A DNA stretch of 59,125 nt from Candidatus Omnitrophota bacterium (GTDB lineage: Bacteria > Omnitrophota > Gorgyraeia > Zapsychrales > Zapsychraceae). Below, piece by piece: positions 26-21,255 of this stretch. The stretch is taken from positions 1 to 59,125 of the forward strand of contig JADFXT010000013.1 of the NCBI GenBank assembly GCA_015233405.1. The letters run 5' to 3'. Position 1 is the first letter of the stretch; each line of letters starts with the position of its first letter. The position numbers and the translations under genes are program-made. The notes below the pieces were generated by a model, which was not told where the DNA came from, ran no database searches, and saw only the letters and a program-made list of their open reading frames with translations.

Positions 26-1567
<1,542 letters not shown>

Positions 1568-1597
1568 AATAAGGCAAGGCGGTTCGAATCATGACAT

Positions 1598-5306: not shown

Positions 5307-5430
5307 ACTTGTTTTTTTCTTGAAAGACCAACTAATGCTCGAGGGGACGCAGACATCATTCTAGTCCTATTTTCTAAATAAGCAATTATATAAACAGCCT
5401 CTAGCTCATGGTCGAAAATCAAGCATTCTG

Positions 5431-6822
5431 CTACTTTTTCTCTTTTTCTAAAATATTATATTTAATCATTTTATTATAAAGAGTGGTTCTATTGATGCCT
5501 AAAATTGAAGCGGCCTTGTTCCTGCTCCAACCGCACTCGTCAAGGACGCTTATGATATGCTCCTGTTCAGGGTCCTCGACGGCTTTTCTTAAAGTTTTCA
5601 CATTATGTTCTGTCTTGTTAATATAAAATTTGGAGATATTCGGAGCATCTTCTTTAGAAATAATCTCCTGTTTGGCCATAATAACCGCGCCTTCTACCGC
5701 ATTTTCTAACTCTCTAATGTTTCCCGGCCAGGAGTAATCCATAAAAATCTGAATAACTCTTTCCGAGACACCCTTAATATTTTTGTTATTTATTTTGCTG
5801 TATTTCTTCACGAAATGGTCAACGATAAATCGGATGTCCTCTTTTCGCTCTCTTAATGGCGGCATATCAATGCCTATAACATTGACGCGGTAATAAAGGT
5901 CTTCCCTGAATTTCCCTTCTTTAACCAGGGTTGCTAAGTCCTGATTTGTTGCAACAATGATGCGGGCATCTGCTTTCCTTTGAACATTATCCCCGACTCT
6001 CTCAAATAGGCCGTCTTGTAAAACCCTAAGAAGCTTGACTTGCAGCGTCGGCGGGAAAGAATCGATCTCATCTAGAAATACGGTGCCGCCCTTGGCATAT
6101 TCAAAACGGCCCTCTTTATCTTTTATGGCTCCGGTAAAGGATCCTTTAACATGACCAAAAAGCTCGCTCTCTAAAAGGGTCTCCGACAAGGCGCCACAAC
6201 TGACTTCAACAAACAAGTTATTCTTTCTTCGTTGATCAGTCTGATGGATAGCTTTTGCAACAAGGCCTTTGCCTGTTCCGCTTTCTCCGCTTATCAAAAT
6301 GGTGGCATTCGTGCTCGCGACAGAATCTATAATATTGTAGATGTTCTGGATTTTAGCGCTTCCGCCGATCATCCCGCAGAACTGCCGCCTTTCTCCTCTA
6401 ACGATAATATCCTTCAGAGCTTTATTTTCGGATAGTATGTCTATTTTTTCCTCGATCTTTTTTATAATAATATTTATCTCGTCGTAGTTAACCGGCTTCG
6501 TAATATAATCATAAGCCCCTTTTTTCATAGACTCTATGGCAATTTCAACGGAGCTATAACCGGTGATCAAAATAAATTCTGTCGCAGGAGATTCCTTTTT
6601 AACATCGTCCAATAATTCAAGGCCATTTTTCTTGGGCAATTTATAATCAGAGATCACAACGTTTATAGGTTTCCGCGATATGATATCCATGGCTTCTTCG
6701 GCCGTGGAAGCCATAAAAACATCATGCCCCTCATCCTTAAGCGCTTCGCATAACGATTCCCGGATAATAGGTTCATCATCTACAACAAGCAATTTTAGAA
6801 CATTTTTTATATTTGGAGTCAT
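5431..6822 (-). CDS. Sigma-54-dependent response regulator (NtrC/AtoC-family bacterial enhancer-binding protein)
   Basis: 463 aa. Receiver domain (LLVVDDEPIIRE, ISDYKLPKKNG). AAA+ sigma-54 interaction module with Walker A GESGTGKG, a GAFTGA-loop variant GSFTGA and Walker B VFLDEID. C-terminal Fis-type HTH (NKAASILGINRTTLYNKM). Confidence 0.92.
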   Translation of the reverse strand: MTPNIKNVLKLLVVDDEPIIRESLCEALKDEGHDVFMASTAEEAMDIISRKPINVVISDYKLPKKNGLELLDDVKKESPATEFILITGYSSVEIAIESMKKGAYDYITKPVNYDEINIIIKKIEEKIDILSENKALKDIIVRGERRQFCGMIGGSAKIQNIYNIIDSVASTNATILISGESGTGKGLVAKAIHQTDQRRKNNLFVEVSCGALSETLLESELFGHVKGSFTGAIKDKEGRFEYAKGGTVFLDEIDSFPPTLQVKLLRVLQDGLFERVGDNVQRKADARIIVATNQDLATLVKEGKFREDLYYRVNVIGIDMPPLRERKEDIRFIVDHFVKKYSKINNKNIKGVSERVIQIFMDYSWPGNIRELENAVEGAVIMAKQEIISKEDAPNISKFYINKTEHNVKTLRKAVEDPEQEHIISVLDECGWSRNKAASILGINRTTLYNKMIKYNILEKEKK

Positions 6823-6846
6823 GATCGTTTTACGCTGCCACTAATT

Positions 6847-7755
6847 TCATTTTCTATTATTAGCAGATTCTAAATTTTGAGGTTCAGCTTTTATCTCACC
6901 CAACTTAATAATAATCGTTTGCATAACGGCAGATAAGGTATGCTTAGGATGGGCAGAGATAAAATCCTTATATATTTTTATAGCTAAATTCCGATTTTCC
7001 ATATTAACCCCAGCAATAGAATCAATGGTTTCCAATAAAACTGTTGCCGTCCTTCTATTTAAATACCCGGTATTTGCTGATTTGATCAGAACCCCTCCAA
7101 GCAAGGTTAAGGCCTCCGGTTGTTTACCTAGATCGAGATAGCAAACTGCGGCGTATCGCATGGATTCATATGCAGCAAACGTATCCGGCTTTTGGCCTAT
7201 AACATCCTTATAATGCGCAATCGCATCCTTGTAAGCCTTGTCGGCGGAAACTTGATCTCCCCTATTAGAGTAGATCTTCGCGATAATGACCGGGACTTTT
7301 AATCCTATAGCGGTCAACGGATAATTTCGTAATATTTGCTTATGCGTTCCGATAAGATCGTCGTAGTCCTTTGTCTCCTCATAAATTTTACCCAGCTCTA
7401 TCGTAGCGGTTATTGCGACGCTAGGATCCTGGCTATATTCTTTGACGACAAATTTAAACTTTTCCAAAGCCTTAGAATAATTCTTTTGGACTGCATACAG
7501 TCGGCCAATAAGAATATGGGCCATCGGAGTTAACTTTGACTTTGGAAACTTATTAATGAATTCATAATATTTCTTTTCAATCCGCTCATATGTCGCGGAA
7601 GGCACAGAATCGGGATCTTTAGAAATCTCCATGGCTTGCTTATTTATTTTCCAAAGAGCTTCTTCTGCGGCGTACTCTCCTTTTGAGTCAACATAACTTA
7701 GATAAATAAATAATCCCGCCAAAATCACAATAAATATAATGATGGTTTTTTTCAT
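6847..7755 (-). CDS. Membrane-anchored TPR-repeat protein
   Basis: I moved the start to the internal ATG at 7755 (MKKTIIIFIVILAGLFIYL signal-anchor). That ATG is preceded by GGAAAGGAAGAGG and overlaps the upstream stop as ATGA. The rest of the protein is helical and TPR-like (YAVQKNYSKALEKF, YEETKDYDDLI, YSNRGDQVSADKAYKDAI). Confidence 0.7.
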   Translation of the reverse strand: MKKTIIIFIVILAGLFIYLSYVDSKGEYAAEEALWKINKQAMEISKDPDSVPSATYERIEKKYYEFINKFPKSKLTPMAHILIGRLYAVQKNYSKALEKFKFVVKEYSQDPSVAITATIELGKIYEETKDYDDLIGTHKQILRNYPLTAIGLKVPVIIAKIYSNRGDQVSADKAYKDAIAHYKDVIGQKPDTFAAYESMRYAAVCYLDLGKQPEALTLLGGVLIKSANTGYLNRRTATVLLETIDSIAGVNMENRNLAIKIYKDFISAHPKHTLSAVMQTIIIKLGEIKAEPQNLESANNRK

Positions 7756-8609
7756 ACCTCTTCCTTTCCTAATAAATAATTTGTGCTCACTGTCGTATAG
7801 ACAACAGCGTCGATTATTGTGACAAAAAGAATGCCACACGCCATGATCACAGCGCTTAGTTCAGGCGCTGTAGACTGTAGGCCATCGCTGTTTTTGAGCA
7901 AAATGATGACCACATAAAGCATGGATGGAACAAGGACAATAAATATCGTGAAGAAAAAGGACCGGAACAACATTTTTATGTTTAGAAACAACGCCTTAAA
8001 AACATTTTTTCTGTCTATAACTATGATAGGCAGTATATATACAACAATGCATGTCGCTAAAATGTTGAGTAACAGGTTAAAATACGGCGCCCCATAAATC
8101 ACAAGCTTTTTGATATTTCCATATAGCCCTGATTCAGATCGAATGATAAGCGCTCTATTTAAAATCAATTCGTATCCCTTTAAAAACAGTAAACTGACAC
8201 CGACAGATATAGCGGCTGCAATAATAATATGAACATACGAGGCGAAGGTTTTTTTGTATATGTTCCCTAGCCGCAGCTTATCTCCGTTATTAACCGCCAC
8301 AAGAATGTTTATAGATGCGGCCATAAAATAGCTGCTGACCAATATATACACCGGGAGTTGTAAGTTCTGGAACAAGGTTGGCAAGAGAACAAAATTTAAA
8401 GGATAATGCAGATAATTATCCGACCATAATTTCTTAATAATAGGCCCGAAGAAAAGGTTAAGCGGATGCCTTGGAGCAAAATAAAAAATCTCCAATAAAA
8501 GAAGCTGAATAAAAGCTATTACGACATAGGGAAATAAAATTGCCTTGTTTTCTAATAAAATACTTGAGGCTAGTTTTAATGCTTGGAACGGGTTTTTGTT
8601 TTGAGCCAT
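7752..8609 (-). CDS. Polytopic inner-membrane protein of unknown function
   Basis: I trimmed the start to the ATG at 8609 (MAQNKNPF...), because the longer ORF overlaps the upstream gene. The protein has about 6-8 hydrophobic segments and no motif I recognise. It is translationally coupled to the TPR gene. Confidence 0.55.
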   Translation of the reverse strand: MAQNKNPFQALKLASSILLENKAILFPYVVIAFIQLLLLEIFYFAPRHPLNLFFGPIIKKLWSDNYLHYPLNFVLLPTLFQNLQLPVYILVSSYFMAASINILVAVNNGDKLRLGNIYKKTFASYVHIIIAAAISVGVSLLFLKGYELILNRALIIRSESGLYGNIKKLVIYGAPYFNLLLNILATCIVVYILPIIVIDRKNVFKALFLNIKMLFRSFFFTIFIVLVPSMLYVVIILLKNSDGLQSTAPELSAVIMACGILFVTIIDAVVYTTVSTNYLLGKEEV

Positions 8610-8667
8610 ATTTTCTCTCTTTTCTTTAGTTTTAATATTTATATATAAATAAAAACTTCCCGCAGAA

Positions 8668-11346
8668 TTACTTGAGTTTAAGGACCTTTTGGCGTAAATT
8701 GCTCGCAATAACCTCATAAATTTCTTGTTTTCCTGAATCGTTCCCGTACAAATCATCTAAAGTTGCCCTGCTCCCAAATTTTACTTTTATTGGATACGGC
8801 ATCGGAAAACGCCGCGCTCTCGGCCACGCCTTAAAAGCTCCATCGATATAAACAGGAACGACAGGGACATTTAATTCTTTGATCAAAATCCCCACGCCTT
8901 TTTTAAAATCTTCCAATTCTCCGTCGAAAGACCGCTCTCCTTCGGGGAAATAGCAAACAATCTTTGATCTGCGCAAAGCAAAAGAACAAGCCCTTAAGGC
9001 TTCTATCAAGCTTACGCTTGAGTCTATCGGGATTATGCTGCCGGTTTTCACAAGCCTTTTCAGCAAAATATTCTTAAAAATAAGGCTATAGCCAACAAAT
9101 TGAACTTCTAGCGCCACTTTAAATGGAAGTCCGCTTAAAACAACAAGTCCATCCAGATAGCTGGTATGATTTGGACAAATCAAATACGGGCCATGCTCTT
9201 TTAAATTTTCTTTTCCCTCAACGCGCAAAAAGAAAAACACTTTAAAGATCAGTTTAATTAAAAGAATCAACGATATATTAATAATACGCACAAATAATCC
9301 GGCTTTAATGAAGATCTGATCCTGAATTTCCTGGCTGGGAGATTGTTTTATGATCTCGTCCCATTTGCGAGATGCTCCCGGTTTAACTTCTGCTGCTCCG
9401 TCGGGAAAGTATTCTCTAAGCTTTATTAACAGATCCTTAACCGTGCTACTGATAAAAAATTCAACCGCCTGCTCAGAGGACATCTCAAGCCCTAAGCGCT
9501 CTTGGAGCCCAAGAAAGACATCTATTCTGGAAAGAGAATCTAATCCTAAATCCAGTTCAAGATGGTCATTGATTTTTACCTCTTTTTTTAAGATATCTTT
9601 GAGCGCAGCCAATGCCGGTTTAGACATTTTTGAGTTATAGATTTCCAAATCGTTTTCATTCAATTCTTCTTTTTCTGTTTTATATCCTTGTTTAACAATT
9701 TTAAATATTTCTTCAACCTTATATCTCATGATCTTCCCTAAAGCTGTACGCGGCAAACTGTCTCTGACAATAACAAAATCACTAATATGTTTATAAGAAG
9801 GCTGTCCTGACGAACGATTTTCTATCTCAAATTTTATTTTTTCCCTTACGTTAGAGCTTTCGATATCGTAAAAACTTTTTTCTTCAATCACAATGACCGC
9901 CGCAAGGTGCTCAACACCGGCCAAGAACCCTTCTTTGCTCACGGGAAAAACACAGAGCTCTTTTATATATTTACTCTCGGAATAGATGTTTTCAATTTCT
10001 TCGGGGTCAATATTCTTCCCCGAGCTAAGAACAATGACGTTTTTCTTCCTTCCGACAAGATAAAGGTAATCATTTTTATCAATATATCCCAAATCTCCGC
10101 TATAGAACCAACCGTCTATGATGGCCTCGCGCGTTTTTTCCTCCTGTTTATAATAACCCGCCATGACATTCGGACCTTTTATTAATACTTCCCCCACGCC
10201 TCTTGAATCTGGATTTAATATTTTTATTTCAACCCCGGGCAGAGCCTTTCCTACCGAACCGATCTTGGGATTTTCTATGGGATTAAAAGCCGCTGCGGGA
10301 GACGTCTCAGTTAAACCATATCCCTCGATGATTGAAAATCCCCACTTGTAAAAAGATATCGCCACATTCTTGTCTAACCGCGCCCCTCCAGAAACCATAA
10401 GCCTCACTTGGCCTCCATAAGCCTTATGTAATTCAGAAAACATCTTTTTGCTCCAATTGACATTTGATAACTTCCTAATATAAAAAAATATTTCAGAGAA
10501 AGATTTAAGTGCATATTTTTTAAGCCCTTTTAAATTCTTTAATTCATCTTCAACATGTCTTTTCATCAAAGAAAATACCTGGGGGACAGCAACAAAAATC
10601 GTAACCTTTTCCTCTTTGATGCACGACAATAATTCCTTCGAAGAGAGACCGGAAGGGAATATAACCGTAGAGCCAGTAACTAGCGGCAAAAGCAGGGTCG
10701 TCGTAAATGCATAGGCATGGTGTAAAGGCAAAATGGAAATCATTCTGTCAGATCCTGTTACATTCGCCAGAGAGCTAAGGGCATGAATATTGAACAAAAG
10801 GTTTGAGTGGGTAAGCATGACCCCCTTCGGCTCATCCGTCGTACCCGACGTATAAAATATCGCAGCCAAAGAATCCGCATCCGCCCCTCCATTAAATATG
10901 TTATTATCAGGATACCCTGCCAATTTTTTGATTAAATCATCGGAGTCAATCGATAAAACAACAGCGTCTTTGATACTGTTAACAATCTCTTTGTAACGGT
11001 CCTTTTTGACAATTAATGCCTTGGCATCTGAATGGATCATGATCCTTTTAATCTGATCCAATGAAAACTGAACATCTAAAGGAACGACCGTAGCACCCAT
11101 CGACATGACAGCAAAGAAAGATACTGCGTATTCAGATTGATTGCCCAGGATAAATGCCACTTTATCTTTCGGCTTAACCCCCACATCTCTAAGAAGATTC
11201 GCCAGCTGTAAAGACTTGCTGAAGAGCTCAGAATATGTCAAACGCCAAGTAGCATCTTTGCCATGAGTAATAATCGAACTTTGTGAAGGAAATGCCTGAA
11301 CAGCACTTGAGAATTCTTCAAAAATATTATCAACTTTTTGTCGCAT
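8668..11346 (-). CDS. Tri-domain fatty acyl-AMP/CoA ligase - acyl carrier protein - PlsC-type (lysophospholipid) acyltransferase
   Basis: 892 aa. AMP-binding signature (IFYTSGTTDEPKGVMLTHSNL, GYGLTETS, SGDLGYIDKNDYLYLVGRKK). Phosphopantetheine attachment site (LDLGLDSLSRIDVF). A TM stretch, then acyltransferase HX4D (CPNHTSYLDGLV) and FPEGERS motifs. Confidence 0.85.
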   Translation of the reverse strand: MRQKVDNIFEEFSSAVQAFPSQSSIITHGKDATWRLTYSELFSKSLQLANLLRDVGVKPKDKVAFILGNQSEYAVSFFAVMSMGATVVPLDVQFSLDQIKRIMIHSDAKALIVKKDRYKEIVNSIKDAVVLSIDSDDLIKKLAGYPDNNIFNGGADADSLAAIFYTSGTTDEPKGVMLTHSNLLFNIHALSSLANVTGSDRMISILPLHHAYAFTTTLLLPLVTGSTVIFPSGLSSKELLSCIKEEKVTIFVAVPQVFSLMKRHVEDELKNLKGLKKYALKSFSEIFFYIRKLSNVNWSKKMFSELHKAYGGQVRLMVSGGARLDKNVAISFYKWGFSIIEGYGLTETSPAAAFNPIENPKIGSVGKALPGVEIKILNPDSRGVGEVLIKGPNVMAGYYKQEEKTREAIIDGWFYSGDLGYIDKNDYLYLVGRKKNVIVLSSGKNIDPEEIENIYSESKYIKELCVFPVSKEGFLAGVEHLAAVIVIEEKSFYDIESSNVREKIKFEIENRSSGQPSYKHISDFVIVRDSLPRTALGKIMRYKVEEIFKIVKQGYKTEKEELNENDLEIYNSKMSKPALAALKDILKKEVKINDHLELDLGLDSLSRIDVFLGLQERLGLEMSSEQAVEFFISSTVKDLLIKLREYFPDGAAEVKPGASRKWDEIIKQSPSQEIQDQIFIKAGLFVRIINISLILLIKLIFKVFFFLRVEGKENLKEHGPYLICPNHTSYLDGLVVLSGLPFKVALEVQFVGYSLIFKNILLKRLVKTGSIIPIDSSVSLIEALRACSFALRRSKIVCYFPEGERSFDGELEDFKKGVGILIKELNVPVVPVYIDGAFKAWPRARRFPMPYPIKVKFGSRATLDDLYGNDSGKQEIYEVIASNLRQKVLKLK

Positions 11347-11381
11347 ATTATGCCTGTATGGATATTAATAAATTTGCAAGA

Positions 11382-12257
11382 TTAATAAGAATGCGCTTCT
11401 TTAATGTTCGGAATGATTTTCGCAAAATCATAACCAGGGTAGAGCTCTTCAAGGAAACCAATTTTTTCCGGAGACATTTTCAGAAGGATGTCTGACTTAT
11501 TAACAAAGAAATACTCAATATCTTCAAGGCTTAGCTTGATCTTCCCCGAGAAACTTTCATGGTCGATTTCCCGAGAAAAGAACAACTGATATAATATCTT
11601 CGACCGATTAATTCTTGCACAATCTTCTTTGACTGTTTTTAAGTTTAGGCATTTTCCTAAAGCAGGAGCGCCGTTGACTTTGGCATAAGATTTTAAACCG
11701 CCGAGATCTTTAAACAGCAGATTGTCATATGTCATTTCATGCTTAGGATTGATTGCTATGCAGATATAATCCAGATTTAAGTACTCTATCGTATAATCGA
11801 AGATATATTTAAAAAGATAGTACACTAAAAACATTTTCCATGGGTTCAATAAAAGCGGGGTGCCTTCTTTAAATTTAAAAATGCTATTGTTAATTGCCAG
11901 CATCGATATTTCACAAAGCTTGTTCCCTTTTCTTAAGATATCCAATTCAGGCTTATACAAATCATCCATCGGAAGCCCAAAACAGGTATCCAGGATAACG
12001 CTTGCGGTTGCCAGTATTTCGTCGTCTGCAAGAGCAATAAAAGTCGTGTTCTCCGGCAGCAGATTATACTCGGAAAGATGTAACCCGGACTTGTTGTCGT
12101 TTTCATAATTTTTTTTTAAATATTCATTGTGGACCAAGGCATATGCTTGCTCTAATTCGTTCCGTGTGCGGGCGACCCTATATTGGATGCATTCCAAATA
12201 AGCCCGCATATGGTTCTTTTCACTCATAACCCGATTATTATTGTCGACTAAATTCAT
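11382..12257 (-). CDS. FeeM-like N-acyl amino acid synthase (GNAT / autoinducer-synthase-like fold), exosortase-system-associated type
   Basis: 291 aa. The pattern RVARTRNELEQAYALVHNEYLKKNY ... LHLSEYNLLPENTTFIALADDEILATASVILDTCFGLPMDDLY ... LCEISMLAI resembles long-chain N-acyl amino acid synthases. This is a by-eye assignment only. Confidence 0.6.
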   Translation of the reverse strand: MNLVDNNNRVMSEKNHMRAYLECIQYRVARTRNELEQAYALVHNEYLKKNYENDNKSGLHLSEYNLLPENTTFIALADDEILATASVILDTCFGLPMDDLYKPELDILRKGNKLCEISMLAINNSIFKFKEGTPLLLNPWKMFLVYYLFKYIFDYTIEYLNLDYICIAINPKHEMTYDNLLFKDLGGLKSYAKVNGAPALGKCLNLKTVKEDCARINRSKILYQLFFSREIDHESFSGKIKLSLEDIEYFFVNKSDILLKMSPEKIGFLEELYPGYDFAKIIPNIKEAHSY

Positions 12258-12262
12258 TTTTA

Positions 12263-12703
12263 TTATTTGCCCTGAACATCCGAATATTTAGACAAAATAT
12301 TATCACTCATAAAAGATATGAATTGTTTTTCATATTTTTGGCTTATTTCATCAAACTGAATTCCAATCAAATAATGCTGTTGAGGTGTGGCCTCTTCCTT
12401 TGCGCTCGAAGAGGCATGTTCTTTACACCAGACAATGGTTCCCCAAAAACACATCGGTTCAAGGTCCCCGGGCAAGGCTATCATGATTTGCAGTCTTGTG
12501 CCGAGGGCTAATTTCTCGTTAACATTTAAGCTTATTCCATTCCCGGAAATATTCTCAAGAGCAAACGGCCTTATCCATTCGCACGAGCAGGAATCCTTCT
12601 CTTCATTGAAGCTATATAACACTTCAACATCTAAAGACAACCGTTCACACCTGCGCTGGTCCTCAGAGATCATTTTCCGTATATCTTCAAATTTTTTAGT
12701 CAT
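12263..12703 (-). CDS. PilZ-domain protein (predicted c-di-GMP receptor)
   Basis: 146 aa. Both halves of the PilZ signature are present, RxxxR (QRRCERLSL) and (D/N)xSxxG (ENISGNGISL). Confidence 0.75.
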   Translation of the reverse strand: MTKKFEDIRKMISEDQRRCERLSLDVEVLYSFNEEKDSCSCEWIRPFALENISGNGISLNVNEKLALGTRLQIMIALPGDLEPMCFWGTIVWCKEHASSSAKEEATPQQHYLIGIQFDEISQKYEKQFISFMSDNILSKYSDVQGK

Positions 12704-12951
12704 TTTTAGATCCTAGGATCATTCTTGATTCCCGCTTGAGAAATATTTATTCCGACGAGGAAAGAGATGCCGTTAAAACACGAATTGCGGTTACACCATT
12801 CCCAAGTGCGTACTTTTGACGCTATTGTGAAGTAATCTCAAAATTAATCAATTGTACCAAGGTATAATAGGCAGAATTCTGCAGTTTGGTTGGAAGGAAA
12901 TGTGTTTTTCGACGACCAATCGTTTGCTTAAAGGGCAACTTAACAATCGAG

Positions 12952-14340
12952 TTAAAATAAATATTTGATTTCCGTATAAATGAGGTCTTTTGTGGTAAAC
13001 GCTCCAAAGGTGGTCGTTTGATCTCCCATAAAAATAAAGCCACCGAAAGAAACACTTACGCCATTATTAAATTTATATTCTATTCTTGGATTAATCATCG
13101 TGTCCTGATACGACAAACTATAGGACCAGTCCAAGTTAAAATTAACAATGCCCCGTTTAAAACTTTTCCTTATGCTCCCCGTTAGCCGTTTTGAGTTTTC
13201 TTCCTGCTCAAACAACCTTTCATAATCCATGACATGGTCAATGATCAACTGCACATCAATATATGTATCATTGCTCGTCGTGTGGTCAATTCCCAAGCCC
13301 ACAGATACAAGATTTTTTTTCACATAAGAAAAATCATCGCGCAAAAACGGCTGGCCGAGCAATACGCCAGTTTCCCCTCTTATGCCGAATGCTCCTATCA
13401 CGGTTTCCCAATCTGCGCCAATGACATTTAATCTCGGGTGAGCCTTTTCTAATATAAAATCATCCCCTGTTGGGGAAGCCGCTTCTAAGGCATTTAAATT
13501 ATCCGCGTTGGGAATATAGAGAAACTTTTTAACTAAATTACCCGTAGCTGTTTTCTCTTTTAAAACAGGGATGGAGTTGTGGACATTCATATAGTAAAGA
13601 GAATAGTCGACATCATTCATTTTGCTGGCAAACCGTATTCCCGCCTCACCATTTTTAAGGTCGTTATCCGTGACATTATCTTGGTCCTCTATAGCTATGG
13701 AGCTAACAATGTTTTTCTTAGCTTGGGACAAAACGCTGCTGTCGGCCACAGCTTGTTTTAAATTTTGAAACACCGCCCAGTCGGACCCAAAAAAATTCAC
13801 TAAGGAGGGCTTGAAAAATGGTTTAAAAACACTTTCCACCTTCCAATCTTCTTGGTTGTAGTCATACTTAAACATAAGCGCTGAACGTTTTCTCTCCTGC
13901 TTATCATAAAGGACAAACCTTCTATAATCTTGCGGGTTGATCTTATCCAAAATAACCACATCATCCAACTTGCCCCAAGTAACAATCTTTTCTCCAAAAG
14001 TAAAAACTTGGGCCCCTTTAGTAAGCTCTAAAAAATCCTCCTTAAATCTTAGACTGGTATCCGTAGAAGGATCATGATTATCAAAAGTTTCCAACCGGCC
14101 TTCCACATCCGCCTTGATCAAAAGCTCATGGTCGAGCATCCAGACATTGTTCTTGATGAGAACCATGGAGTCGGTAACAAGCTTATCTTCGAATGCATTG
14201 TTATCAACAGCATCCTGGTAGATGCGTGATCTAATCTCCCCTTTTTTATCCCATTGGATATTCGCGCTCTCTAGGGCAAACGCCCTTAAAGGAAAACATG
14301 CGGCAAAAAGGAAGAGTGGGAAAAATAGGTTGATTTTCAT
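12952..14340 (-). CDS. Putative outer-membrane beta-barrel protein (DUF1302-like)
   Basis: 462 aa. Signal peptide (MKINLFFPLFLFAACFPLRAFA), alternating beta-strand-like composition and a C-terminal aromatic residue (EIKYLF). It overlaps the upstream gene by 4 nt. Confidence 0.6.
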   Translation of the reverse strand: MKINLFFPLFLFAACFPLRAFALESANIQWDKKGEIRSRIYQDAVDNNAFEDKLVTDSMVLIKNNVWMLDHELLIKADVEGRLETFDNHDPSTDTSLRFKEDFLELTKGAQVFTFGEKIVTWGKLDDVVILDKINPQDYRRFVLYDKQERKRSALMFKYDYNQEDWKVESVFKPFFKPSLVNFFGSDWAVFQNLKQAVADSSVLSQAKKNIVSSIAIEDQDNVTDNDLKNGEAGIRFASKMNDVDYSLYYMNVHNSIPVLKEKTATGNLVKKFLYIPNADNLNALEAASPTGDDFILEKAHPRLNVIGADWETVIGAFGIRGETGVLLGQPFLRDDFSYVKKNLVSVGLGIDHTTSNDTYIDVQLIIDHVMDYERLFEQEENSKRLTGSIRKSFKRGIVNFNLDWSYSLSYQDTMINPRIEYKFNNGVSVSFGGFIFMGDQTTTFGAFTTKDLIYTEIKYLF

Positions 14341-15116
14341 TGTTTTTCTAGTCGATAAACCGTAAACAAATCATCCACTAAACCTTGGTTATAGTTGATC
14401 TCAAGCAGCTTCATTAAAGTCTTGTGCTGGTCCTTAAGATTCTCCATTTCCACTTGCGTTATGGTCCAAATCCCCTGCTTTATTTCAAAATTCTTAACCC
14501 TTAACTCTTTGGTCTTTTGAACTTTCTTATCATAAAAATCAACCCGTAAAACAAGATAACTTTCTTTATCTATCCAGCTTATGCGTTTCGAATATTGTGA
14601 CGCGCCGTCGCGAGGAATACTTTCAACAACGAAACAACTATGCCCATCCAAAGATTCTTCAGCTATAAGCTTATGCGCATCTTTTTCTGGTCGGCGCCTC
14701 TGCATATCTTCATAGGTATAATCCGTATTTACAAAAGCAAGGTTCTTTTGACTGCTTACGATTCTTCTCGCCCTACCCAATGCCGGCAAATATAGGTATT
14801 GCGTATTATCGGCATTTTTCTCTTCGATAGAAAGAAACCTTGTGTCCTTTATATCAGCAGGCTTAGAGAACTCAAGGAACGTCTTGGTCAGGTCTCCGAA
14901 ATCTTTTGAATATATCTCCAGGATCCTGCTTCTTAAATTGTTTTGCTTATCAACAAGGGTCATTTCTATCTTTGAGTAGCTGTCTTTTCCGTCGTCGCGA
15001 TTAAACGACTTTTCAATAATACTCGCGCCAGAGGGCGCTTCCGCAAAACTTTGTCTATATGCCAAAAGCACACAAAAAGCGATAATAACACCTACAAATA
15101 GATTTCTCATGTTCAA
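14337..15116 (-). CDS. LolA-like outer-membrane lipoprotein-sorting family protein
   Basis: 259 aa. Signal peptide present. Family-typical segments are YSKIEMTLVDKQNNLRSRILEIYSKDF, FSKPADIKDTRFLS and YLYLPALGRARRIVSSQKNLAFVNTDYTYEDM. Confidence 0.75.
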   Translation of the reverse strand: MNMRNLFVGVIIAFCVLLAYRQSFAEAPSGASIIEKSFNRDDGKDSYSKIEMTLVDKQNNLRSRILEIYSKDFGDLTKTFLEFSKPADIKDTRFLSIEEKNADNTQYLYLPALGRARRIVSSQKNLAFVNTDYTYEDMQRRRPEKDAHKLIAEESLDGHSCFVVESIPRDGASQYSKRISWIDKESYLVLRVDFYDKKVQKTKELRVKNFEIKQGIWTITQVEMENLKDQHKTLMKLLEINYNQGLVDDLFTVYRLEKQ

Positions 15117-16003
15117 CTCTTTCCTGAAAAAGTTTTAAAGAGATACCATCTTTTTAATCTTTGTATAGGATTTCTGTTGCCCCACAAAAGATATCCCTTC
15201 TTATATTCTTGCTCATAGGGATCGAACTGAAAATAATACGGCACAGGTTTTAGATTTTTTTTGCTTAACAGGATTTTTAACGTTTCCGTTATGATCAGCG
15301 TATTACATAAATGGCAGGAGGAAACTAACGCTGGCCCAGTCTTGGCGCTTATATCAACCTTGCTAAGGTCGCAATACTTCATATGAATGGACGCTGGCGC
15401 CAGCCCGACAGCAAAAGCAATCAATTTTTCTAACCAGCTCATTTTATCGTTGATGTCAAAATACTCATCAAAGCTCATGGATGTCGGAGAAAAAACCAGA
15501 AGAGCGCTTCCAAACCCCAATGGACCCGCCGTCACCGAATAGATCCCTCTTTTTTTAGCCTCAGCGAATATCAACCTTCTCGTCTCAATACAAAAAAAGT
15601 CTATTCCATCCACCAAGACATCAACGCCATCCAGAAACTCGCCGATATTTTGTTTGTCGACGCCTTTATTAAAACTATCTATTTCCAGATGTGGATTTAT
15701 GCTCAAAGCGATTTCTTTCATTGTATCTGATTTGTTCTTGCCAAGGGTGTCCATCGAAGACCCATATTGCCTCTGTATATTAGCAATATCAAAATCGTCC
15801 ATGTCTGCGATATTGAATTTTCCAATACCTGTTCTGACCAAGCCGATCAAATGGGACCCGCCAACGCCTCCGCATCCGGCAATGGCAATTTTAGAAGATC
15901 TCAATATCTTTTGTTCCTCTTCCGTTAACACGCCGATATTGCGGTTAAAGGCTTTATCGTAGAACAAATCAACATCATTACAATATTTTGAAAAATCGTT
16001 CAT
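15113..16003 (-). CDS. ThiF/MoeB/HesA-family E1-like adenylyltransferase
   Basis: 296 aa. Nucleotide-binding motif KIAIAGCGGVGGSHLIGLVRTGIGKFNIADMDDFDIANIQRQ. A single CxxC (CHLC). It has 4-nt overlaps with the downstream LolA-like gene. Confidence 0.8.
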   Translation of the reverse strand: MNDFSKYCNDVDLFYDKAFNRNIGVLTEEEQKILRSSKIAIAGCGGVGGSHLIGLVRTGIGKFNIADMDDFDIANIQRQYGSSMDTLGKNKSDTMKEIALSINPHLEIDSFNKGVDKQNIGEFLDGVDVLVDGIDFFCIETRRLIFAEAKKRGIYSVTAGPLGFGSALLVFSPTSMSFDEYFDINDKMSWLEKLIAFAVGLAPASIHMKYCDLSKVDISAKTGPALVSSCHLCNTLIITETLKILLSKKNLKPVPYYFQFDPYEQEYKKGYLLWGNRNPIQRLKRWYLFKTFSGKS

Positions 16004-16019
16004 AGTATTTCACTACGCC

Positions 16020-18365
16020 TTATTTGAACTTGGGTTTAAAAAAAGTCAACAGCGCCGGATTCAGAACAAGTTCTATCCATAATCCATTAAAAATAAGAAC
16101 AGCGCTCAATATTCCAAAATAATAGGTCGGCACAAACCGTGAAAAACCAACCACGCCAAAACCCATGATCAAAATCAAAGAAGTAATCACAGTCGGCCTG
16201 CCTTTGGAAGCAAAACAACGGTAAACCGACTCTTCTCTATTATTATTTGTCTTCTTCATCTCTTCGCCAAATGCATGAAAAAAATGTATCGTATCATCCA
16301 CAATAATACCTATCCCGATATCAGAGATCATACTCGTCGCGCTATCAAGCCTAATGGCAAACAATCCCATGATCCCGAAATTAACCAGAAGCGGTAATAA
16401 ATTCGGGATGATGCTTAAGAACCCTACCGGAATAGACCTAAAATCGATAAACATCATTCCAAAAATGACAAGCATCGCGAATGCTAAACTCAGCACCTGG
16501 CCGTTTGTAACGGCCTCGTTGGAATCAACCTCTAAAACAGTCTGGCCTAAAACTCTTGAGGAAATGCCCGCCGGCACGTTTTCTTTTAAGTAGCTATTGA
16601 TCTCAGCAATAATCTTTTGTAATTTCGCCGTGCTATGCTCTTTTAAACGCACCCGTACGCTTGCCCACTCCCAACGCGAATCCATGAATTTGCTTAAATC
16701 ATCAGCTCCGTACAAAAGCACATATTGAGCAACTAAATTACGCGAATCGGGAATTGCATAATAACGCGCATCTTCATCATGAAACGATTTATTAATTTCC
16801 TTAAGATAATCCACAACTGAGGTCACTTTATCGACCACGGGAATGGTGTATAAAAATTTTTCAATGTCCTCTATCTTTTTAAGTTCACGAGGATCTTTAA
16901 AGTAATCTTCTGTGCCTGCACGCAAAGAAATATTGATCATGTGAACGCCGCTTAGATGGCTTTCAATAAAGTCCGTGGCCTGGCGAACGGGACTATCTTT
17001 TCTAAAATATTCAATGACGCTTGTTTCTGTTTTTATCTTAAACGTTGCCCATGTCGAAACAATCCCAACCACCAAAGATGTGATGAGAATAATTTCTTTG
17101 TGCCGGATACTAAACCGCGCAACAGACATTATTATTTTATCAGGCGCCTCTTGTAAGAATGCAAACCCGTAAAGTTCAGTATCGTTTGCCCCAGTGGCTT
17201 GATCTTTGGGATTGTATAAATGTCGTAGAAGAGAAAACTGTTTTATGACAGCCGGCAGAAATGTGAACGTAATAATAAAGGCAAAAAATACTCCGGTACC
17301 GGCGACAAAACCTAATTGTTGGATAGGCGGAACAGAGCTTATCAATAACGAATAAAATCCCACAACCGTCGTGATGTTCGTAAGAAAACACGGCCAAAAA
17401 AGATGGTGCATTGTATCGCGAATGATCTCATTTTGGTTGCTATCTAAGTCCTTCGGTTTTAATCTTACGCTCTTGAGGATCAACTCCCATAAAAAATGAA
17501 TGCTCTCAAGCAAAGTAATGCTTAACATGACCGGCGGGATAATGGTCGTGACATTATTTATTGAGAATCCGCAGAGATACAAAAACGCCATTGTCCACAC
17601 AAGAGAAATAAGCGTTCCAACCAAAGGCAGCAGGACGCCATAAAAAGTGCGAAAACTTAATATCAGGACGGCCAATAAGATCAAGAACATCAGCGGGATA
17701 AAAGTCGCCAAGTCCGATTGCATAAACCGAGCATAAATGACCTCTATGGTCGTAAAACCGCTGACATAATATTTCTTTCCCTTTGGAAATTCTTCTATTA
17801 AGACCTTATTGACATTATCAACCAGCTCTTTTTTATATTTATCCTCCGAACCCTTTTTGTGGATTAATTCAATTATAAAGGCCGTGGAAGTCCCATCCGC
17901 AGAAATTACATTCTTTAAGAACAACGGATTTGATAAAGCCCTGTGCCTTAAGGCCTTCAATGCTACAGGGTCTTCAGGAACGTTTTCAACAAAAGGCCGG
18001 ACAATAAAGTCTTGTTCTTGACCGATAACGTCATTGACATTCGTCAGGCTGGTCACTTTATCAACGTCGGGTAAATCTTCAAAACGATTGGTGAGGCGGG
18101 AAATGAGCTCTAAATTTTTTTGGGTAAATATATCTGCATCTTTAAACGCGACCATAACAACCTGATCGCTGCCAAATTGTTCTTTCCAAGCTTGAAAATC
18201 AATATAATTACTACTTTTTTTATTAAAAAAAACATCGACGCCGTTATCCATTTTAATTTGAGGCAAAACAGCAACGGATAAGACGGTAACTAAGGCTGTA
18301 AGGATAATGACAGCAGAAGAATGATCAAGGATATATCTGAAAAATTTATCTAGAATATTTTTCAT
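16020..18365 (-). CDS. MMPL/RND-superfamily exporter (HpnN-like lipid transporter type)
   Basis: 781 aa. Two blocks of TM helices each follow a large periplasmic domain. The N-terminus is typical of this family (ILTALVTVLSVAVLPQIKMDNGVDVFF ... FGSDQVVMVAF). Confidence 0.85.
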   Translation of the reverse strand: MKNILDKFFRYILDHSSAVIILTALVTVLSVAVLPQIKMDNGVDVFFNKKSSNYIDFQAWKEQFGSDQVVMVAFKDADIFTQKNLELISRLTNRFEDLPDVDKVTSLTNVNDVIGQEQDFIVRPFVENVPEDPVALKALRHRALSNPLFLKNVISADGTSTAFIIELIHKKGSEDKYKKELVDNVNKVLIEEFPKGKKYYVSGFTTIEVIYARFMQSDLATFIPLMFLILLAVLILSFRTFYGVLLPLVGTLISLVWTMAFLYLCGFSINNVTTIIPPVMLSITLLESIHFLWELILKSVRLKPKDLDSNQNEIIRDTMHHLFWPCFLTNITTVVGFYSLLISSVPPIQQLGFVAGTGVFFAFIITFTFLPAVIKQFSLLRHLYNPKDQATGANDTELYGFAFLQEAPDKIIMSVARFSIRHKEIILITSLVVGIVSTWATFKIKTETSVIEYFRKDSPVRQATDFIESHLSGVHMINISLRAGTEDYFKDPRELKKIEDIEKFLYTIPVVDKVTSVVDYLKEINKSFHDEDARYYAIPDSRNLVAQYVLLYGADDLSKFMDSRWEWASVRVRLKEHSTAKLQKIIAEINSYLKENVPAGISSRVLGQTVLEVDSNEAVTNGQVLSLAFAMLVIFGMMFIDFRSIPVGFLSIIPNLLPLLVNFGIMGLFAIRLDSATSMISDIGIGIIVDDTIHFFHAFGEEMKKTNNNREESVYRCFASKGRPTVITSLILIMGFGVVGFSRFVPTYYFGILSAVLIFNGLWIELVLNPALLTFFKPKFK

Positions 18366-18501: not shown

Positions 18502-19293
18502 TTATGCTGTTTTACGTCTAAATCCAGCTCCCAACATCCCCATGAGGCCGCTTGCAAAAAGAGCAATTGAACCGGGCTCAGGAATGGCAACATCAGCAGA
18601 ACCATCATGGACTGACATTGTTTGTCCAGTTGTCGGGTTAATAATAACTAGGTCTGTGTTTGAATCAACAATGAGCCTAGGTCTGGTAGCTAATAAACTT
18701 AGGTCATTGCCATTTGCATCAAGCCAGAAACCTGGCTTCATATCTACAAATTTCCAGTCTAAAACGGCATCGCCGGATAGGAATTTGGTATCAAGTTCCC
18801 CTTTTCCGCTATTTAAAGTTAATGTGCCGACTAAATCCCCAACTGGGCCAACAAAACCAGTATCATCATTTGCGCCTGCTGCTCCTGTATGAAAATTATA
18901 GGGAACGCCAGCTGATGCATACAGGTTTAAATCTCCTGAGGTATAATTAAAGAACAATGCCGGATTACCAGCAGGATTAGTGCCTGGTGTTACAGTCCCG
19001 GCTAAATTTGTCCAGCTACCATACAGCGACCATTGATATGAAAGAAGCCCTTCATTATCAATAACCGGCGGAGGAATTAAACTGGTAACAGCAACATTAC
19101 CAACGTCGCTGAAAGTACCACCACCTGTGTTTGTTGAAGTTGTTTCAGCATACAATCCCATTTCATCAAATGCTCCTGTGACGCCATTTCCTGATCCTAT
19201 GCCGCCTGGACCTAATTTCATGATGAAAGCGTCTGCTCTGCCAGCTACTAAAACAACCGTAGCCAAAACCAATGTTATTATTAGTTTTCTCAT
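18502..19293 (-). CDS. Secreted PEP-CTERM sorting-domain protein
   Basis: 263 aa. Signal peptide (LVLATVVLVAGRADA), a G/T/N-rich body and a C-terminal tail AIPEPGSIALFASGLMGMLGAGFRRKTA (PEP motif, TM helix, basic cluster). Confidence 0.9.
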   Translation of the reverse strand: MRKLIITLVLATVVLVAGRADAFIMKLGPGGIGSGNGVTGAFDEMGLYAETTSTNTGGGTFSDVGNVAVTSLIPPPVIDNEGLLSYQWSLYGSWTNLAGTVTPGTNPAGNPALFFNYTSGDLNLYASAGVPYNFHTGAAGANDDTGFVGPVGDLVGTLTLNSGKGELDTKFLSGDAVLDWKFVDMKPGFWLDANGNDLSLLATRPRLIVDSNTDLVIINPTTGQTMSVHDGSADVAIPEPGSIALFASGLMGMLGAGFRRKTA

Positions 19294-19403: not shown

Positions 19404-20294
19404 TTATCTAGCTCCCTCACCGGTTAAAACAACTCTAAACGTCCTAAAGAAAATCCTTAGATCCGTCCATAAACAAATCTTTTTTATATAGAGAATGTCG
19501 TACTTCACTTTCTTTTTGACATCATCGATCGTTTCATCGTATCTGTTCCAAACTTGCGCTAATCCGGTTAATCCAGGCTTTACAGAAAGCCTTTTTTCAT
19601 AATCCGGGATCTCTCTTATAAACTTTTCCACAAAAACCGGTCTCTCAGGTCTTGGCCCGATTAAACTCATATCACCTTTAAGGATATTTAGAAATTGAGG
19701 TATCTCATCAATATGGGCTTTTCTTAAAAATTTAGCGCAAGGAATGAACCTTTTATCATTTTCAGAAGCCCAAACAGGACCAGTTTCTTTCTCAGCGTCT
19801 ACGCGCATGGTCCGGAATTTATATATCAAAAAAGCTTTACCGTTTTTTCCAACCCGTATTTGGTTATAAAAAATCGGGCCTTTTGATCCTAATTTTATGA
19901 TGATGGATGTAATCAAAAACAACGGTGAGAGAACGATTAAACCTATAATACCCGCCAAAATATCCAAAATTCTTTTAGTAACAGCATAGGTCCTGCGGAC
20001 AAAGCTAACCAACATTCCAAACAAGCCGCTTCCAAAAAGAATGATAGTTGAAGATTCTGGCATTACTGGCCTAACAGGATCCAACGGAGCGAGCAATGGA
20101 TTTTGATTCTTTGGGGAATACTTCATCTCACCTATAGGAATATCCAGCGATTTTGCATCTTCAAATCGGACATAGTTATTTAGCTGTATGGAGGATGCTG
20201 TAAAAGCCCAGGCAGAAGCTCTAGATAAAAAAATCAGCGTAAACATACCTGCAATCAAAATAAAATATTTAATTTTTCCAAGTATGCCTATCAT
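19404..20294 (-). CDS. Polyprenyl-phosphate sugar-phosphate transferase (small Bac_transf/PglC-WbaP-C type) fused to an N-terminal signal peptide plus PEP-CTERM-like segment
   Basis: 296 aa. Residues 1-30 form a signal peptide (LIFLSRASAWA). Residues 78-101 read MPESSTIILFGSGLFGMLVSFVRR. From residue 105 onward it is a canonical small PGT (KRILDILAGIIGLIVLSPLFLITSIIIKLGSKGPIFYNQIRVGKNGKAFLIYKFRTM, DEIPQFLNILKGDMSLIGPRPERP). Confidence 0.9.
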   Translation of the reverse strand: MIGILGKIKYFILIAGMFTLIFLSRASAWAFTASSIQLNNYVRFEDAKSLDIPIGEMKYSPKNQNPLLAPLDPVRPVMPESSTIILFGSGLFGMLVSFVRRTYAVTKRILDILAGIIGLIVLSPLFLITSIIIKLGSKGPIFYNQIRVGKNGKAFLIYKFRTMRVDAEKETGPVWASENDKRFIPCAKFLRKAHIDEIPQFLNILKGDMSLIGPRPERPVFVEKFIREIPDYEKRLSVKPGLTGLAQVWNRYDETIDDVKKKVKYDILYIKKICLWTDLRIFFRTFRVVLTGEGAR

Positions 20295-20601: not shown

Positions 20602-21255
20602 TTACGGAAGGTATGTTCTTAAATACGGAGTTATCAATCCTGCAAACTCTCTTAAAGTTTTTTCTGCACCGGCAATGTCATTATTTTTAACAACGGTTGA
20701 AATTCGAATTAACGCGCTGCTTGATGGTTTTCCCATAAGAGTTTTAAAAGCAATTAACATTTGCTGCTTCCAATAACTTGCCGTAAATTCATCTCCCACT
20801 TTGAACCAATACATCAGCGATTGCTGCATTCCTAACCCATCCATAACCAGATTATTAAAAGGCAGATCTATGCCTTTAGGATCATCTTTTGTTGCTATAT
20901 GAATCGATTGGGTTTTCTTACTGATGGCCATTGTCCCTCCTCCTGTATAACAAATCTCTGGAGGATGCGAAACCTTTCTATTTCTTTGGGAATAAACAAC
21001 AAAAAAGTTAACATTCTCGCCGGAAGGTAAATGATAATGCCGAATAAAAGCATTTTTTGTTTCTAAAACAGCATATTCTGTTTTGGAAAGCTCTACTTCC
21101 TCAGATGTCCAGTTCCCGATCGTCCGCGGGAACCCATGGATGCTTACCGTATCTTTATACAAATAAACCTTAAAGTAACTGTTCCACGACACCACGCATA
21201 CAGATAAGAAAAGAATTATAATGAGCACGTATTTTAAGTCAAATTTGGTTTTCAT
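20602..21255 (-). CDS. EpsI-family exosortase-associated protein
   Basis: 217 aa. N-terminal TM helix, then FPRTIGNWTSEEVEL ... FIRHYHLPSGENVNFFVVYS ... SHPPEICYTGGG, the pattern typical of EpsI. It sits immediately downstream of the exosortase gene. Confidence 0.8.
   Translation of the reverse strand: MKTKFDLKYVLIIILFLSVCVVSWNSYFKVYLYKDTVSIHGFPRTIGNWTSEEVELSKTEYAVLETKNAFIRHYHLPSGENVNFFVVYSQRNRKVSHPPEICYTGGGTMAISKKTQSIHIATKDDPKGIDLPFNNLVMDGLGMQQSLMYWFKVGDEFTASYWKQQMLIAFKTLMGKPSSSALIRISTVVKNNDIAGAEKTLREFAGLITPYLRTYLP

Follow-up and report, generated by a model that had tools for sequence, protein, structure and literature searches.

The stretch analysed here, hereafter the window, comprises 59,125 nucleotides (nt) of contig JADFXT010000013.1 (assembly GCA_015233405.1) of a Candidatus Omnitrophota bacterium. 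Nine consecutive open reading frames (ORFs) at positions 6847-18365, referred to below as the cassette, encode an MMPL-type pump, a ThiF-family enzyme, a LolA-like periplasmic carrier, a candidate outer-membrane beta-barrel, a PilZ protein, a FeeM-type N-acyl amino acid synthase, a three-domain protein that joins an AMP ligase and an acyl carrier protein (ACP) to a PlsC-type acyltransferase (the tri-domain enzyme), a polytopic membrane protein and an anchored TPR protein. These genes, together with the other annotated features of the window, are listed in Table 1.

Table 1. Annotated features of the window (TM, transmembrane; aa, amino acids; bit scores refer to profile searches).
Position	Strand	Feature	Basis or remark
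5431-6822	-	Sigma-54-dependent response regulator (PrsR-like)	TIGR02915 PEP_resp_reg 411 bits (cutoff 503)
6847-7758	-	N-terminally anchored TPR protein (YbgF/CpoB-like repeats)	TPR Pfam; TIGR02795 72 bits, below cutoff; TM helix residues 5-23
7752-8609	-	Polytopic all-helical membrane protein, 285 aa	No Pfam or NCBIfam match
8668-11346	-	AMP ligase - ACP - TM helix - PlsC-type acyltransferase, 892 aa	PF00501 278, PF00550 23, PF01553 76 bits
11382-12257	-	FeeM-type N-acyl amino acid synthase	PF21926 106.3 bits (cutoff 27)
12263-12703	-	PilZ c-di-GMP receptor (predicted)	PF07238 43 bits
12952-14340	-	DUF1302-type outer-membrane beta-barrel candidate, 462 aa	PF06980 32 bits (cutoff 23); signal peptide; C-terminal ...KYLF
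14337-15116	-	Periplasmic LolA-like (TP_0789-like) lipid/lipoprotein carrier	PF17131 200 bits, DUF1329 42 bits; signal peptide
15113-16003	-	Stand-alone ThiF-family adenylating enzyme, 296 aa	NF006077/PRK08223 387 bits (cutoff 266)
16020-18365	-	MMPL/HAE3-type RND inner-membrane transporter, 781 aa	PF03176 115 bits; TM profile, about 12 TM
18502-19293	-	PEP-CTERM substrate protein (PepA-like), directly upstream of MMPL gene	Tail ...IPEPGSIALFASGLMGMLGAGFRRKTA; NF033554 68 bits (cutoff 80)
19404-20294	-	Priming sugar transferase	TIGR03025 293 bits
20354-20369	-	Perfect sigma-54 promoter consensus TGGCACGCATTTTGCT, zero mismatches	60 nt upstream of sugar-transferase gene heading the gene string
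20602-21255	-	EpsI	TIGR02914 95 bits (cutoff 43)
21276-22094	-	Exosortase	TIGR02602 184 bits (cutoff 106)
46201-47589	+	rpoN (sigma-54)	Only large plus-strand gene in the window
47663-48277		Second PEP-CTERM gene	Canonical tail
48327-48342	-	One-mismatch sigma-54 site	50 nt upstream of second PEP-CTERM gene

All nine ORFs are found in the ORF list of the window on the minus strand, which carries almost every gene of this low-GC stretch (about 0.35-0.48), and they are separated by 5-58 nt or overlap by 4 nt, the sole exception being 248 nt between the barrel gene and the PilZ gene. The tight, co-directional packing reported in an earlier sequence-only reading of this DNA is therefore confirmed, with two start sites refined: the polytopic membrane protein most likely starts at 8609, in agreement with the public gene call, rather than at 8756, and for the TPR protein the likeliest start is 7758 (MKKT...). 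Domains were called with profile Hidden Markov Models (HMMs) of Pfam and NCBIfam, with bit scores read against the model cutoffs, and the far half of the window was annotated with Pfam on ten ORFs; each domain assignment of the earlier reading was reproduced in this way.

Related loci (57, identified by L numbers) were gathered by exact-protein look-ups and by contig and metagenome scans, ORFs were called, and all proteins were clustered unsupervised. The core comparison was made on 14 non-redundant loci, mostly from Omnitrophota, in which the FeeM-like protein is at least 44% identical to that of the window; locus counts are lower bounds, several contigs being cut. Ordered by the number of the 57 loci in which they occur, the families run from FeeM through the tri-domain enzyme, PilZ, the barrel, the LolA-like carrier, the sigma-54 regulator, the polytopic membrane protein, ThiF, the TPR protein, kinases, the sugar transferase and a MacB-type permease to MMPL, so that all nine cassette families are included. 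Within the core set, PilZ lies directly upstream of FeeM in 14 of 14 loci and the full tri-domain enzyme is encoded in 13 (the remaining locus has a ligase-only gene), as is the barrel; the polytopic membrane protein is present in 12, the TPR protein in 11, the LolA-like protein in 10 and ThiF in 6.

Synteny is complete from the exosortase gene to the TPR gene in one Omnitrophota metagenome-assembled genome (L007), at 46-78% amino acid identity (62-78% for all proteins but PilZ). Five further loci (L011, L014, L016, L018 and L021) keep the cassette genes in altered order and orientation, and genes that stay co-located through such rearrangement are likely to be functionally linked. Orthologs of the sigma-54 regulator, 59-65% identical, follow the cassette in L004, L006, L012, L013 and L017. 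We conclude that the nine genes form a conserved cassette, grouped far beyond what chance would produce; co-occurrence across genomes, on which the sequence-only reading had staked its proposal, is what the 14 non-redundant loci display, rearrangements included. That unrelated genes have come together by accident at the border of an exopolysaccharide (EPS) locus might be argued from the 248-nt gap, which divides the block into 16020-12952 and 12703-6847, and from the fact that ThiF, MMPL and the LolA-like protein are not present in every related locus. However, unsupervised clustering placed the cassette families among the top co-occurring ones, and they persist despite rearrangement and across phyla, which makes such an accident highly improbable.

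A set of 5.8 billion proteins contains, in addition to the FeeM-like protein, 91 homologs of it, only one of which carries a functional name, and Candidatus Omnitrophota is the commonest label among those assigned to an organism. The labels Pacearchaeota and Thermoproteota on some FeeM homologs, and Bathyarchaeia on one ThiF homolog, probably denote mis-binned Omnitrophota contigs. The profile of the window synthase matches the structure of FeeM (PDB 2G0B) at E 9e-31, and its invariant E116 aligns with the active-site Glu of FeeM in 'KKLAEVVQF'. Its AlphaFold2 (AF2) model (pLDDT 91) retrieves 2G0B as the best Foldseek match (TM-score 0.83-0.86), followed by the acyl-homoserine lactone (AHL) synthases LasI and BjaI, in keeping with a FeeM/LuxI-like alpha/beta/alpha fold. 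Among NCBIfam models the protein matches one only, at the N-terminus of PRK14852, and its C-terminus is extended by some 85 aa that are helical and conserved. By homology and predicted fold it is a genuine FeeM relative, and would be expected to N-acylate an amino acid. Many of the loci encode two FeeM-like paralogs, adjacent or close to each other (L004, 8788-9420; L018, about 11900-12900; L043, 10921-11802; L054, 734-2542; L030/L031); the window has one only.

The PilZ protein retains both motifs of its family, RxxxR (RRCER at residue 17) and N-x-S-x-x-G (NISGNG at residue 51), from which binding of cyclic di-GMP (c-di-GMP) is predicted. Two relatives encode FeeM-PilZ-PilZ fusions of 565-568 aa (L028, 9959-11656, plus strand; L029, about 7150-8855), and in the L028 fusion a stretch matching the C-terminal extension of the window synthase lies between the FeeM and PilZ domains. 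Fusions between N-acyl amino acid synthases (NAS) and PilZ have been described before: Nas343 and Nas354 yield N-acyl-tyrosine in Escherichia coli (Thies et al. 2016).

The ThiF-family enzyme had been described as wedged inside the export set, but sequence comparison identifies it as a partner of the FeeM-like synthase instead. It has the GCGGVG ATP loop, scores 375 bits with PRK14851 and 283 bits with PRK14852 in addition to its PRK08223 match, and shares 44-53% identity with the ThiF domains that relatives carry fused to, or next to, a nitroreductase/flavin-dependent oxidase (FDO). PRK14852 is itself a model of a 989-aa FeeM-ThiF(-FDO) fusion, of which the window FeeM matches the N-terminus and the window ThiF the middle. 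In distant relatives a FeeM gene is directly followed by ThiF fused or adjacent to a nitroreductase-superfamily domain in L008 (Acidobacteriota), L009 (Desulfovibrionaceae), L026, L043 and L055 (Gemmataceae); synthase and ThiF share one operon-like string in the window and are adjacent or fused in L008, L009, L018 and L026. The ThiF-FDO fusion of L009 scores 803 bits with PRK14851, 346 with PRK08223, 282 with the Rv1355c family and 154 with an Acg-type FMN oxidase model, and in L054 (Thermodesulfobacteriota) and L055 genes for FeeM, ThiF and a hydrophobe exporter are co-located.

These gene pairs resemble the acyl-oxazolone synthetases OxzA/OxzB of Pseudoalteromonas rubra and TyzA/TyzB/TyzC and TrzA/TrzS of Mycobacterium tuberculosis, TrzS being Rv1355c. 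In those pathways the N-acyltransferases OxzA, TyzA and TrzA produce an N-acyl aromatic amino acid, OxzB, TyzB and TrzS cyclise N-acyl amino acids in an ATP-dependent ThiF reaction, and a flavin-dependent oxidase then desaturates the product; for TrzS, cyclisation precedes desaturation and the saturated cyclised intermediate builds up without O2. Oxazolones are prone to hydrolysis and alcoholysis, and do not survive acid or methanol. A tblastn search with three FDO domains found the desaturase in L008, L009, L026, L043, L055 and L056 and none in the window or in Omnitrophota-type loci, so that the product of the window ThiF would be a saturated azlactone, an activated N-acyl-aminoacyl donor. 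Since no more than about half of the loci of the clade encode ThiF, it is best regarded as an accessory step.

Two other roles for the enzyme were considered and rejected. For an E1 acting on a ubiquitin-like protein, no small ThiS/MoaD-like gene was found among the conserved families (ORFs of 70 aa or more), and the fusion and adjacency of ThiF with FeeM imply a small-molecule substrate; for azoline machinery of the thiazole/oxazole-modified microcin (TOMM) kind, with which ThiF-FDO might be compared, no YcaO gene occurs among the locus genes examined. On the 2-Mb contig of L056, at 4350-9952, a member of the ThiF subfamily found in the cassette and a separate FDO stand with a methyltransferase, a GMC oxidoreductase and a UDP-glycosyltransferase beside an exosortase and a PEP-CTERM gene; this set, with no annotated FeeM within 8 kb, may represent a decorated oxazolone pathway.

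The motifs of the tri-domain enzyme are intact in all three domains. Its AMP-binding domain begins at residue 17 and has the ligase motifs TSGTT, YGLTE and YSGD, the ACP carries the phosphopantetheine Ser motif GLDSL, and the acyltransferase, which is preceded by a hydrophobic helix (688-706), has HTSYLD (HX4D) at 727 and FPEG at 800 and matches Thermotoga TmPlsC (5KYM) at E 1.6e-8. No reductase family was matched, and an assignment of the ligase as a fatty acyl-AMP ligase (FAAL) was rejected, fatty acyl-CoA synthetase (FACS)-type structures (FadD13, 8weu) scoring better than the FAAL structure 3pbk. The Aas-type model NF006386 scores 284 bits, below its cutoff. The ACP-acyltransferase region is common to 336 representatives of 50%-identity clusters at E<=1e-30; among the 150 best of these 336, most full-length members are of about 870-920 aa and match at the C-terminus. 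Named family members are annotated as 'AMP-binding protein' and come from Omnitrophota and Auribacterota. In L012 (760 + 232 aa) and L021 (721 + 243 aa) the gene is split into two ORFs, for which a frameshift, assembly error or decay is possible.

Homologs of this enzyme also occur in other settings, beside ribosomal and tRNA-synthetase genes in L057, a housekeeping context, and in L058 in a cluster of ether-lipid/phospholipid type that includes AGPS-like, CdsA and CDP-alcohol transferase genes. The L058 protein is of 1115 aa, and its neighbours (1-15206) include a polyketide synthase, the AGPS-like FAD oxidase, CdsA, the CDP-alcohol phosphatidyltransferase and a major facilitator superfamily protein, an arrangement that resembles a myxobacterial-type ether-lipid locus. 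From these contexts the family as a whole is understood as a general enzyme that activates a free fatty acid and esterifies it; what is specific to the cassette is its strict linkage to PilZ-FeeM. The private fatty-acid-loading module of the sequence-only reading has to be qualified accordingly, the family being a large, ElbD-like one that is not exclusive to such loci.

The export set is likewise recognisable, with an approximate family placement for the pump, which scores 238 bits with the HAE3 model TIGR00921, below the cutoff of 352. An MMPL pump is encoded in the window and in L004, L007, L011-L014 and L054, and is replaced by a MacB-type ABC transporter (FtsX/MacB_PCD permease plus ATPase) in L001/L022, L016, L021, L026 and L043 and by MacB with an HlyD-like adaptor in L055; the LolA-like carrier, whose relatives in the PDB are 9tp6, 4z48 and 3bk5, and the DUF1302 barrel are retained despite the exchange of pumps. 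RND and MacB-type machines are extractors and exporters rather than importers, LolCDE itself being a MacB-type ABC transporter, and with both interchangeable pumps of this kind, outward traffic of a lipid or lipid-anchored cargo is favoured. A B12-binding radical SAM gene adjoins the exporter at L001 14202-16073, L022 and L016 16314-16919 (beside MacB-type ABC genes) and at L011 15435-16596 (beside MMPL).

The direction of transport bears on a different interpretation, in which, for scavenging or repair, the exporter set takes up or recycles fatty acids and lysolipids of a host or the environment, the Aas/ElbD-like enzyme re-esterifies them to ordinary membrane phospholipid, and FeeM, PilZ and ThiF act separately. 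The below-cutoff Aas-type match, the tri-domain homologs in housekeeping and phospholipid/ether-lipid contexts, and the association of DUF1302/DUF1329/HAE3 sets with the use of hydrophobic substrates would all fit such a function. It is nevertheless quite unlikely, given the established export role of both pump types, the persistence of the tri-domain gene beside PilZ-FeeM through several rearrangements, and, in L011, a sigma-54-type promoter directly upstream of the tri-domain gene.

The polytopic membrane protein has 31 homologs, all unnamed, the most distant of which carries PF10110. Its AF2 model (pLDDT 88) is all-helical, a fold search gave no PDB match at E<0.1, and there is only a weak resemblance to CysZ and to choline-transporter-like proteins (TM-score 0.5-0.6). 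Between the tri-domain and membrane-protein genes, L006 (13846-14199) and L013 (13729-14067) have a small ORF (about 110 aa) with a sigma-54-type promoter ahead of it; no equivalent was called in the window, where the long version of the membrane-protein ORF (7752-8756) spans that space.

The cassette stands in a PEP-CTERM/exosortase locus. The exosortase, EpsI and two proteins with canonical PEP-CTERM tails are encoded in the same locus of the window, and across the window and its relatives the cassette has exosortase, EpsI and PEP-CTERM genes at its sides or among its own genes. PEP-CTERM genes occur beside or inside the cassette in L004, L007, L011, L012 and L018, and in L011 and L018 such a gene separates the TPR gene from the membrane-protein gene. 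The perfect sigma-54 consensus ahead of the gene string (Table 1), for which an estimated 0.06 matches or so would be expected by chance in the window, recurs at the same position in L007, and one-mismatch sites precede cassette or PEP-CTERM genes in L001, L006, L011, L013, L018 and L021. The total count of sigma-54-like sites in the window is at chance level, and only perfect, well-placed, conserved sites were retained; generic sigma-70 promoter and terminator scans of the window performed no better than on shuffled sequence. The PrsT model scores the TPR protein at 27 bits (cutoff 312) and the PrsR model scores the regulator at 411 (cutoff 503); large PrsT-like TPR proteins adjoin FeeM or ThiF in L043, L055 and L056. 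Because PEP-CTERM genes, sigma-54 promoters and a sigma-54 regulator accompany it, the cassette is assigned to the exosortase regulon and is part of the PEP-CTERM/exosortase system, more than a neighbour of it. The sequence-only reading was right about the exosortase link, but its picture of a self-contained system merely adjacent to the exosortase genes has to be given up.

This setting raises the possibility that the N-acyl-amino-acid lipid anchors the PEP-CTERM proteins. The exosortase would resolve its acyl-enzyme onto an amine-bearing N-acyl-amino-acid lipid, or the azlactone made by ThiF would N-acyl-aminoacylate the protein, and the pump, LolA-like carrier and barrel would form a Lol-like route to the surface; put more fully, a c-di-GMP-gated lipid would be the missing partner of exosortase, with the TPR protein also in the Lol-like pathway. 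PEP-CTERM genes immediately adjoin the cassette or lie within it, the carrier is LolA-like, the pump that replaces MMPL in relatives shares its MacB type with LolCDE, the synthase-exosortase link has long been known without explanation, and archaeosortase substrates are lipid-modified. Against this, an exosortase acceptor has yet to be demonstrated, exosortase is expected to act at the outer membrane face while ThiF and FeeM are located in the cytoplasm, and the characterised products of FeeM-type enzymes (Tyr, Phe, Trp and Arg conjugates) mostly have no free amine. FeeM-ThiF-exporter sets also occur with no visible exosortase within 8-10 kb in L054 and L055. We consider both the anchoring role and its fuller form unlikely.

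Downstream of the cassette lie the sigma-54 response regulator and two sensor kinases, and the cassette might be read as a signalling circuit: the synthase, with or without ThiF, would make an N-acyl amino acid or oxazolone that diffuses and acts like an AHL, to be exported and sensed by the kinases and the sigma-54 regulator, placing the expression of EPS and PEP-CTERM genes under a quorum or aggregation circuit gated by c-di-GMP. The fold of the synthase, whose nearest matches apart from FeeM are the AHL synthases LasI and BjaI, the strict co-location of GAF/PocR kinases and the sigma-54 regulator, and the fact that published papers discuss N-acyl amino acids, as well as oxazolones, as signals all speak for it. 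A signal of this kind, however, would need no fatty-acid-loading O-acyltransferase, LolA-like carrier or outer-membrane barrel, and these three components are better conserved in the clade than ThiF; signalling is an unlikely function of the cassette.

Beyond the exosortase gene, the window continues with an EPS locus encoding glycosyltransferases, a Wzy-like polymerase, a flippase, GNVR/AAA chain-length proteins and a Wza-like exporter. A 1112-aa ORF inside the glycosyltransferase block (25242-28580, minus strand) matches no Pfam family at E<=1e-6. Just 3' of the sigma-54 regulator gene, a 1124-aa chain (1932-5306, minus strand) combines a CheB-like methylesterase, a CheR-like methyltransferase and a histidine kinase. 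An Rfam scan of the window gave no RNA family match.

We propose, with a probability of about 0.5, that the cassette serves the PEP-CTERM/exosortase (floc/EPS) system as an accessory module, making a lipid based on an N-acyl amino acid for export to the outer membrane or surface. This lipid module would be switched on by sigma-54 with the response regulator and gated by c-di-GMP. Judging from its domains and motifs, the tri-domain enzyme would adenylate a free long-chain fatty acid and load its own ACP. The synthase, whose fold, catalytic Glu and homology are those of FeeM, would N-acylate an amino acid, with a specificity that we infer along with the activity, and PilZ, strictly adjacent to it here and fused in relatives, would serve as its c-di-GMP-dependent partner. 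[quoted passage not shown] ThiF would optionally activate and cyclise the carboxylate to a saturated 5(4H)-oxazolone (azlactone), an activated donor rather than a stable end product. The MMPL pump, or the MacB-type ABC transporter in relatives, would extract the product from the inner membrane and pass it to the LolA-like carrier, which would deliver it to the DUF1302 barrel for insertion in, or passage through, that protein; the polytopic protein and the anchored TPR protein are presumably conserved accessory parts. The chemical steps, the PlsC acceptor and the direction of transport are the inferred elements of this scheme.

Several points weigh against the proposed lipid module. That FeeM is coupled to the cis-ACP is assumed, given that OxzA and TyzA use acyl-CoA and not acyl-ACP, and the product, the amino acid and the PlsC acceptor are predictions from gene content. 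At least 5 of the 14 related loci lack ThiF, which is hence accessory, and the genome could hold a gene for an FDO desaturase beyond the 59 kb of the window. In view of the housekeeping and ether-lipid homologs (L057, L058), the acceptor of the PlsC domain may be an ordinary lysophospholipid. Finally, DUF1302/DUF1329/HAE3 cassettes of Proteobacteria are connected with growth on, or tolerance of, hydrophobic substrates, and the direction of their transport has not been rigorously established.

The cassette bears on two questions that have stood since 2006-2011, namely the attachment partner to which exosortase joins PEP-CTERM proteins and the reason for the presence of N-acyl amino acid synthases in these loci, and it offers for them a compact, testable gene set of a synthase, PilZ, a ThiF cyclase, an acyl-loading O-acyltransferase and a Lol-like export route. 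The cassette recurs across Omnitrophota, and its FeeM-ThiF-exporter core also occurs in Thermodesulfobacteriota, Planctomycetota, Acidobacteriota and Desulfovibrionaceae, extending the pairing of synthase and ThiF seen in oxazolone pathways well beyond the Proteobacteria and Actinomycetota in which it was described. It further identifies an FDO-less oxazolone-type form with a reactive azlactone as its predicted product, and ties acyl-amino-acid/oxazolone-type lipids to second-messenger control and envelope export. For the Omnitrophota, which are uncultured, very small diderms, the cassette suggests a lipid or lipoprotein at the surface that is tied to aggregation or attachment.

Much of this has published precedent in part: the synthase-exosortase link, synthase-PilZ fusions, synthase-ThiF-FDO oxazolone pathways, ElbD-like proteins without the FAR domain, and HAE3/DUF1302/LolA-like cassettes. 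Full-text literature searches returned no description of the conserved union of these modules in one cassette, nor of an FDO-less ThiF form, of oxazolone-type genes linked to exosortase loci or an export route, or of the MMPL/MacB interchange. Each module thus has a known relative and the combination is new to the literature searched; the earlier statement that no characterised system has this full composition stands, no paper describing the combination having been found.

Among described systems, the nearest to the export set is the AmeABCD cassette, which likewise combines an HAE3-like RND pump, a LolA-superfamily periplasmic protein and a DUF1302 outer-membrane protein. It differs in its carrier, which is of DUF1329 type there and of PF17131 type in the window, and in having AmeC, an additional periplasmic component whose COG4447/BNR-like domain was not found in the nine proteins or their conserved neighbours; moreover, the pump described here is exchangeable with a MacB-type ABC transporter, and the presumed cargo is endogenous rather than xenobiotic.

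The oxazolone synthetases share with the cassette the co-location of a synthase gene with a ThiF-family cyclase gene, and an MmpL gene also neighbours tyz; at the level of family models, the window ThiF has PRK08223 in common with the ThiF-FDO fusions of relatives. In contrast to these pathways, FDO was not found in the window, so that a saturated reactive azlactone rather than a conjugated tyrazolone would be expected. The window synthase is of FeeM type with a C-terminal extension, and PilZ, the tri-domain acyltransferase, the outer-membrane export set and the exosortase linkage are added. Nas343 and Nas354 couple a FeeM-like synthase to a PilZ c-di-GMP domain as the window does, but by fusion instead of a separate upstream PilZ gene, and the published clones were reported to lie outside any biosynthetic operon. 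The family of exosortase-associated acyltransferases represented by TIGR03694 gave no match to the window FeeM or to six relatives even at E<=1; the window synthase is of a different lineage. [quoted passage not shown]

The tri-domain enzyme resembles ElbD, an ether-lipid enzyme of Myxococcus xanthus, and the bifunctional Aas (acyl-ACP synthetase/2-acyl-GPE acyltransferase) in uniting an AMP ligase, a carrier function and an AGPAT/PlsC-type acyltransferase in one polypeptide. ElbD has an N-terminal fatty acyl reductase (FAR) domain that the window protein lacks (FAR-less 'ElbD-like' proteins have been noted in other phyla, as yet uncharacterised), whereas relative to Aas the window protein has a reversed domain order and an ACP in cis; the window gene also sits among genes for a synthase and an exporter. 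The aminolipid systems OlsB/OlsA, GlsB/GlsA and OlsF, whose two-step logic the sequence-only reading had invoked, likewise pair an N-acyltransferase of the GNAT/LuxI-like superfold with a PlsC-type O-acyltransferase bearing HX4D. The second half of that comparison is supported by the HX4D and FPEG motifs of the window O-acyltransferase, which, in contrast to OlsA and GlsA, carries its own ligase and ACP. The first half is not, the window N-acyltransferase belonging to the FeeM family rather than that of OlsB or GlsB: no OlsB/GlsB-type family was found among its matches, which comprise FeeM and a below-cutoff Surface_Ag_2 in Pfam and the N-terminus of PRK14852 in NCBIfam. The 3-hydroxyacyl intermediate of OlsB/OlsA is purely hypothetical for the cassette, for which an OlsB/OlsA-like two-step chemistry is, by analogy, plausible.

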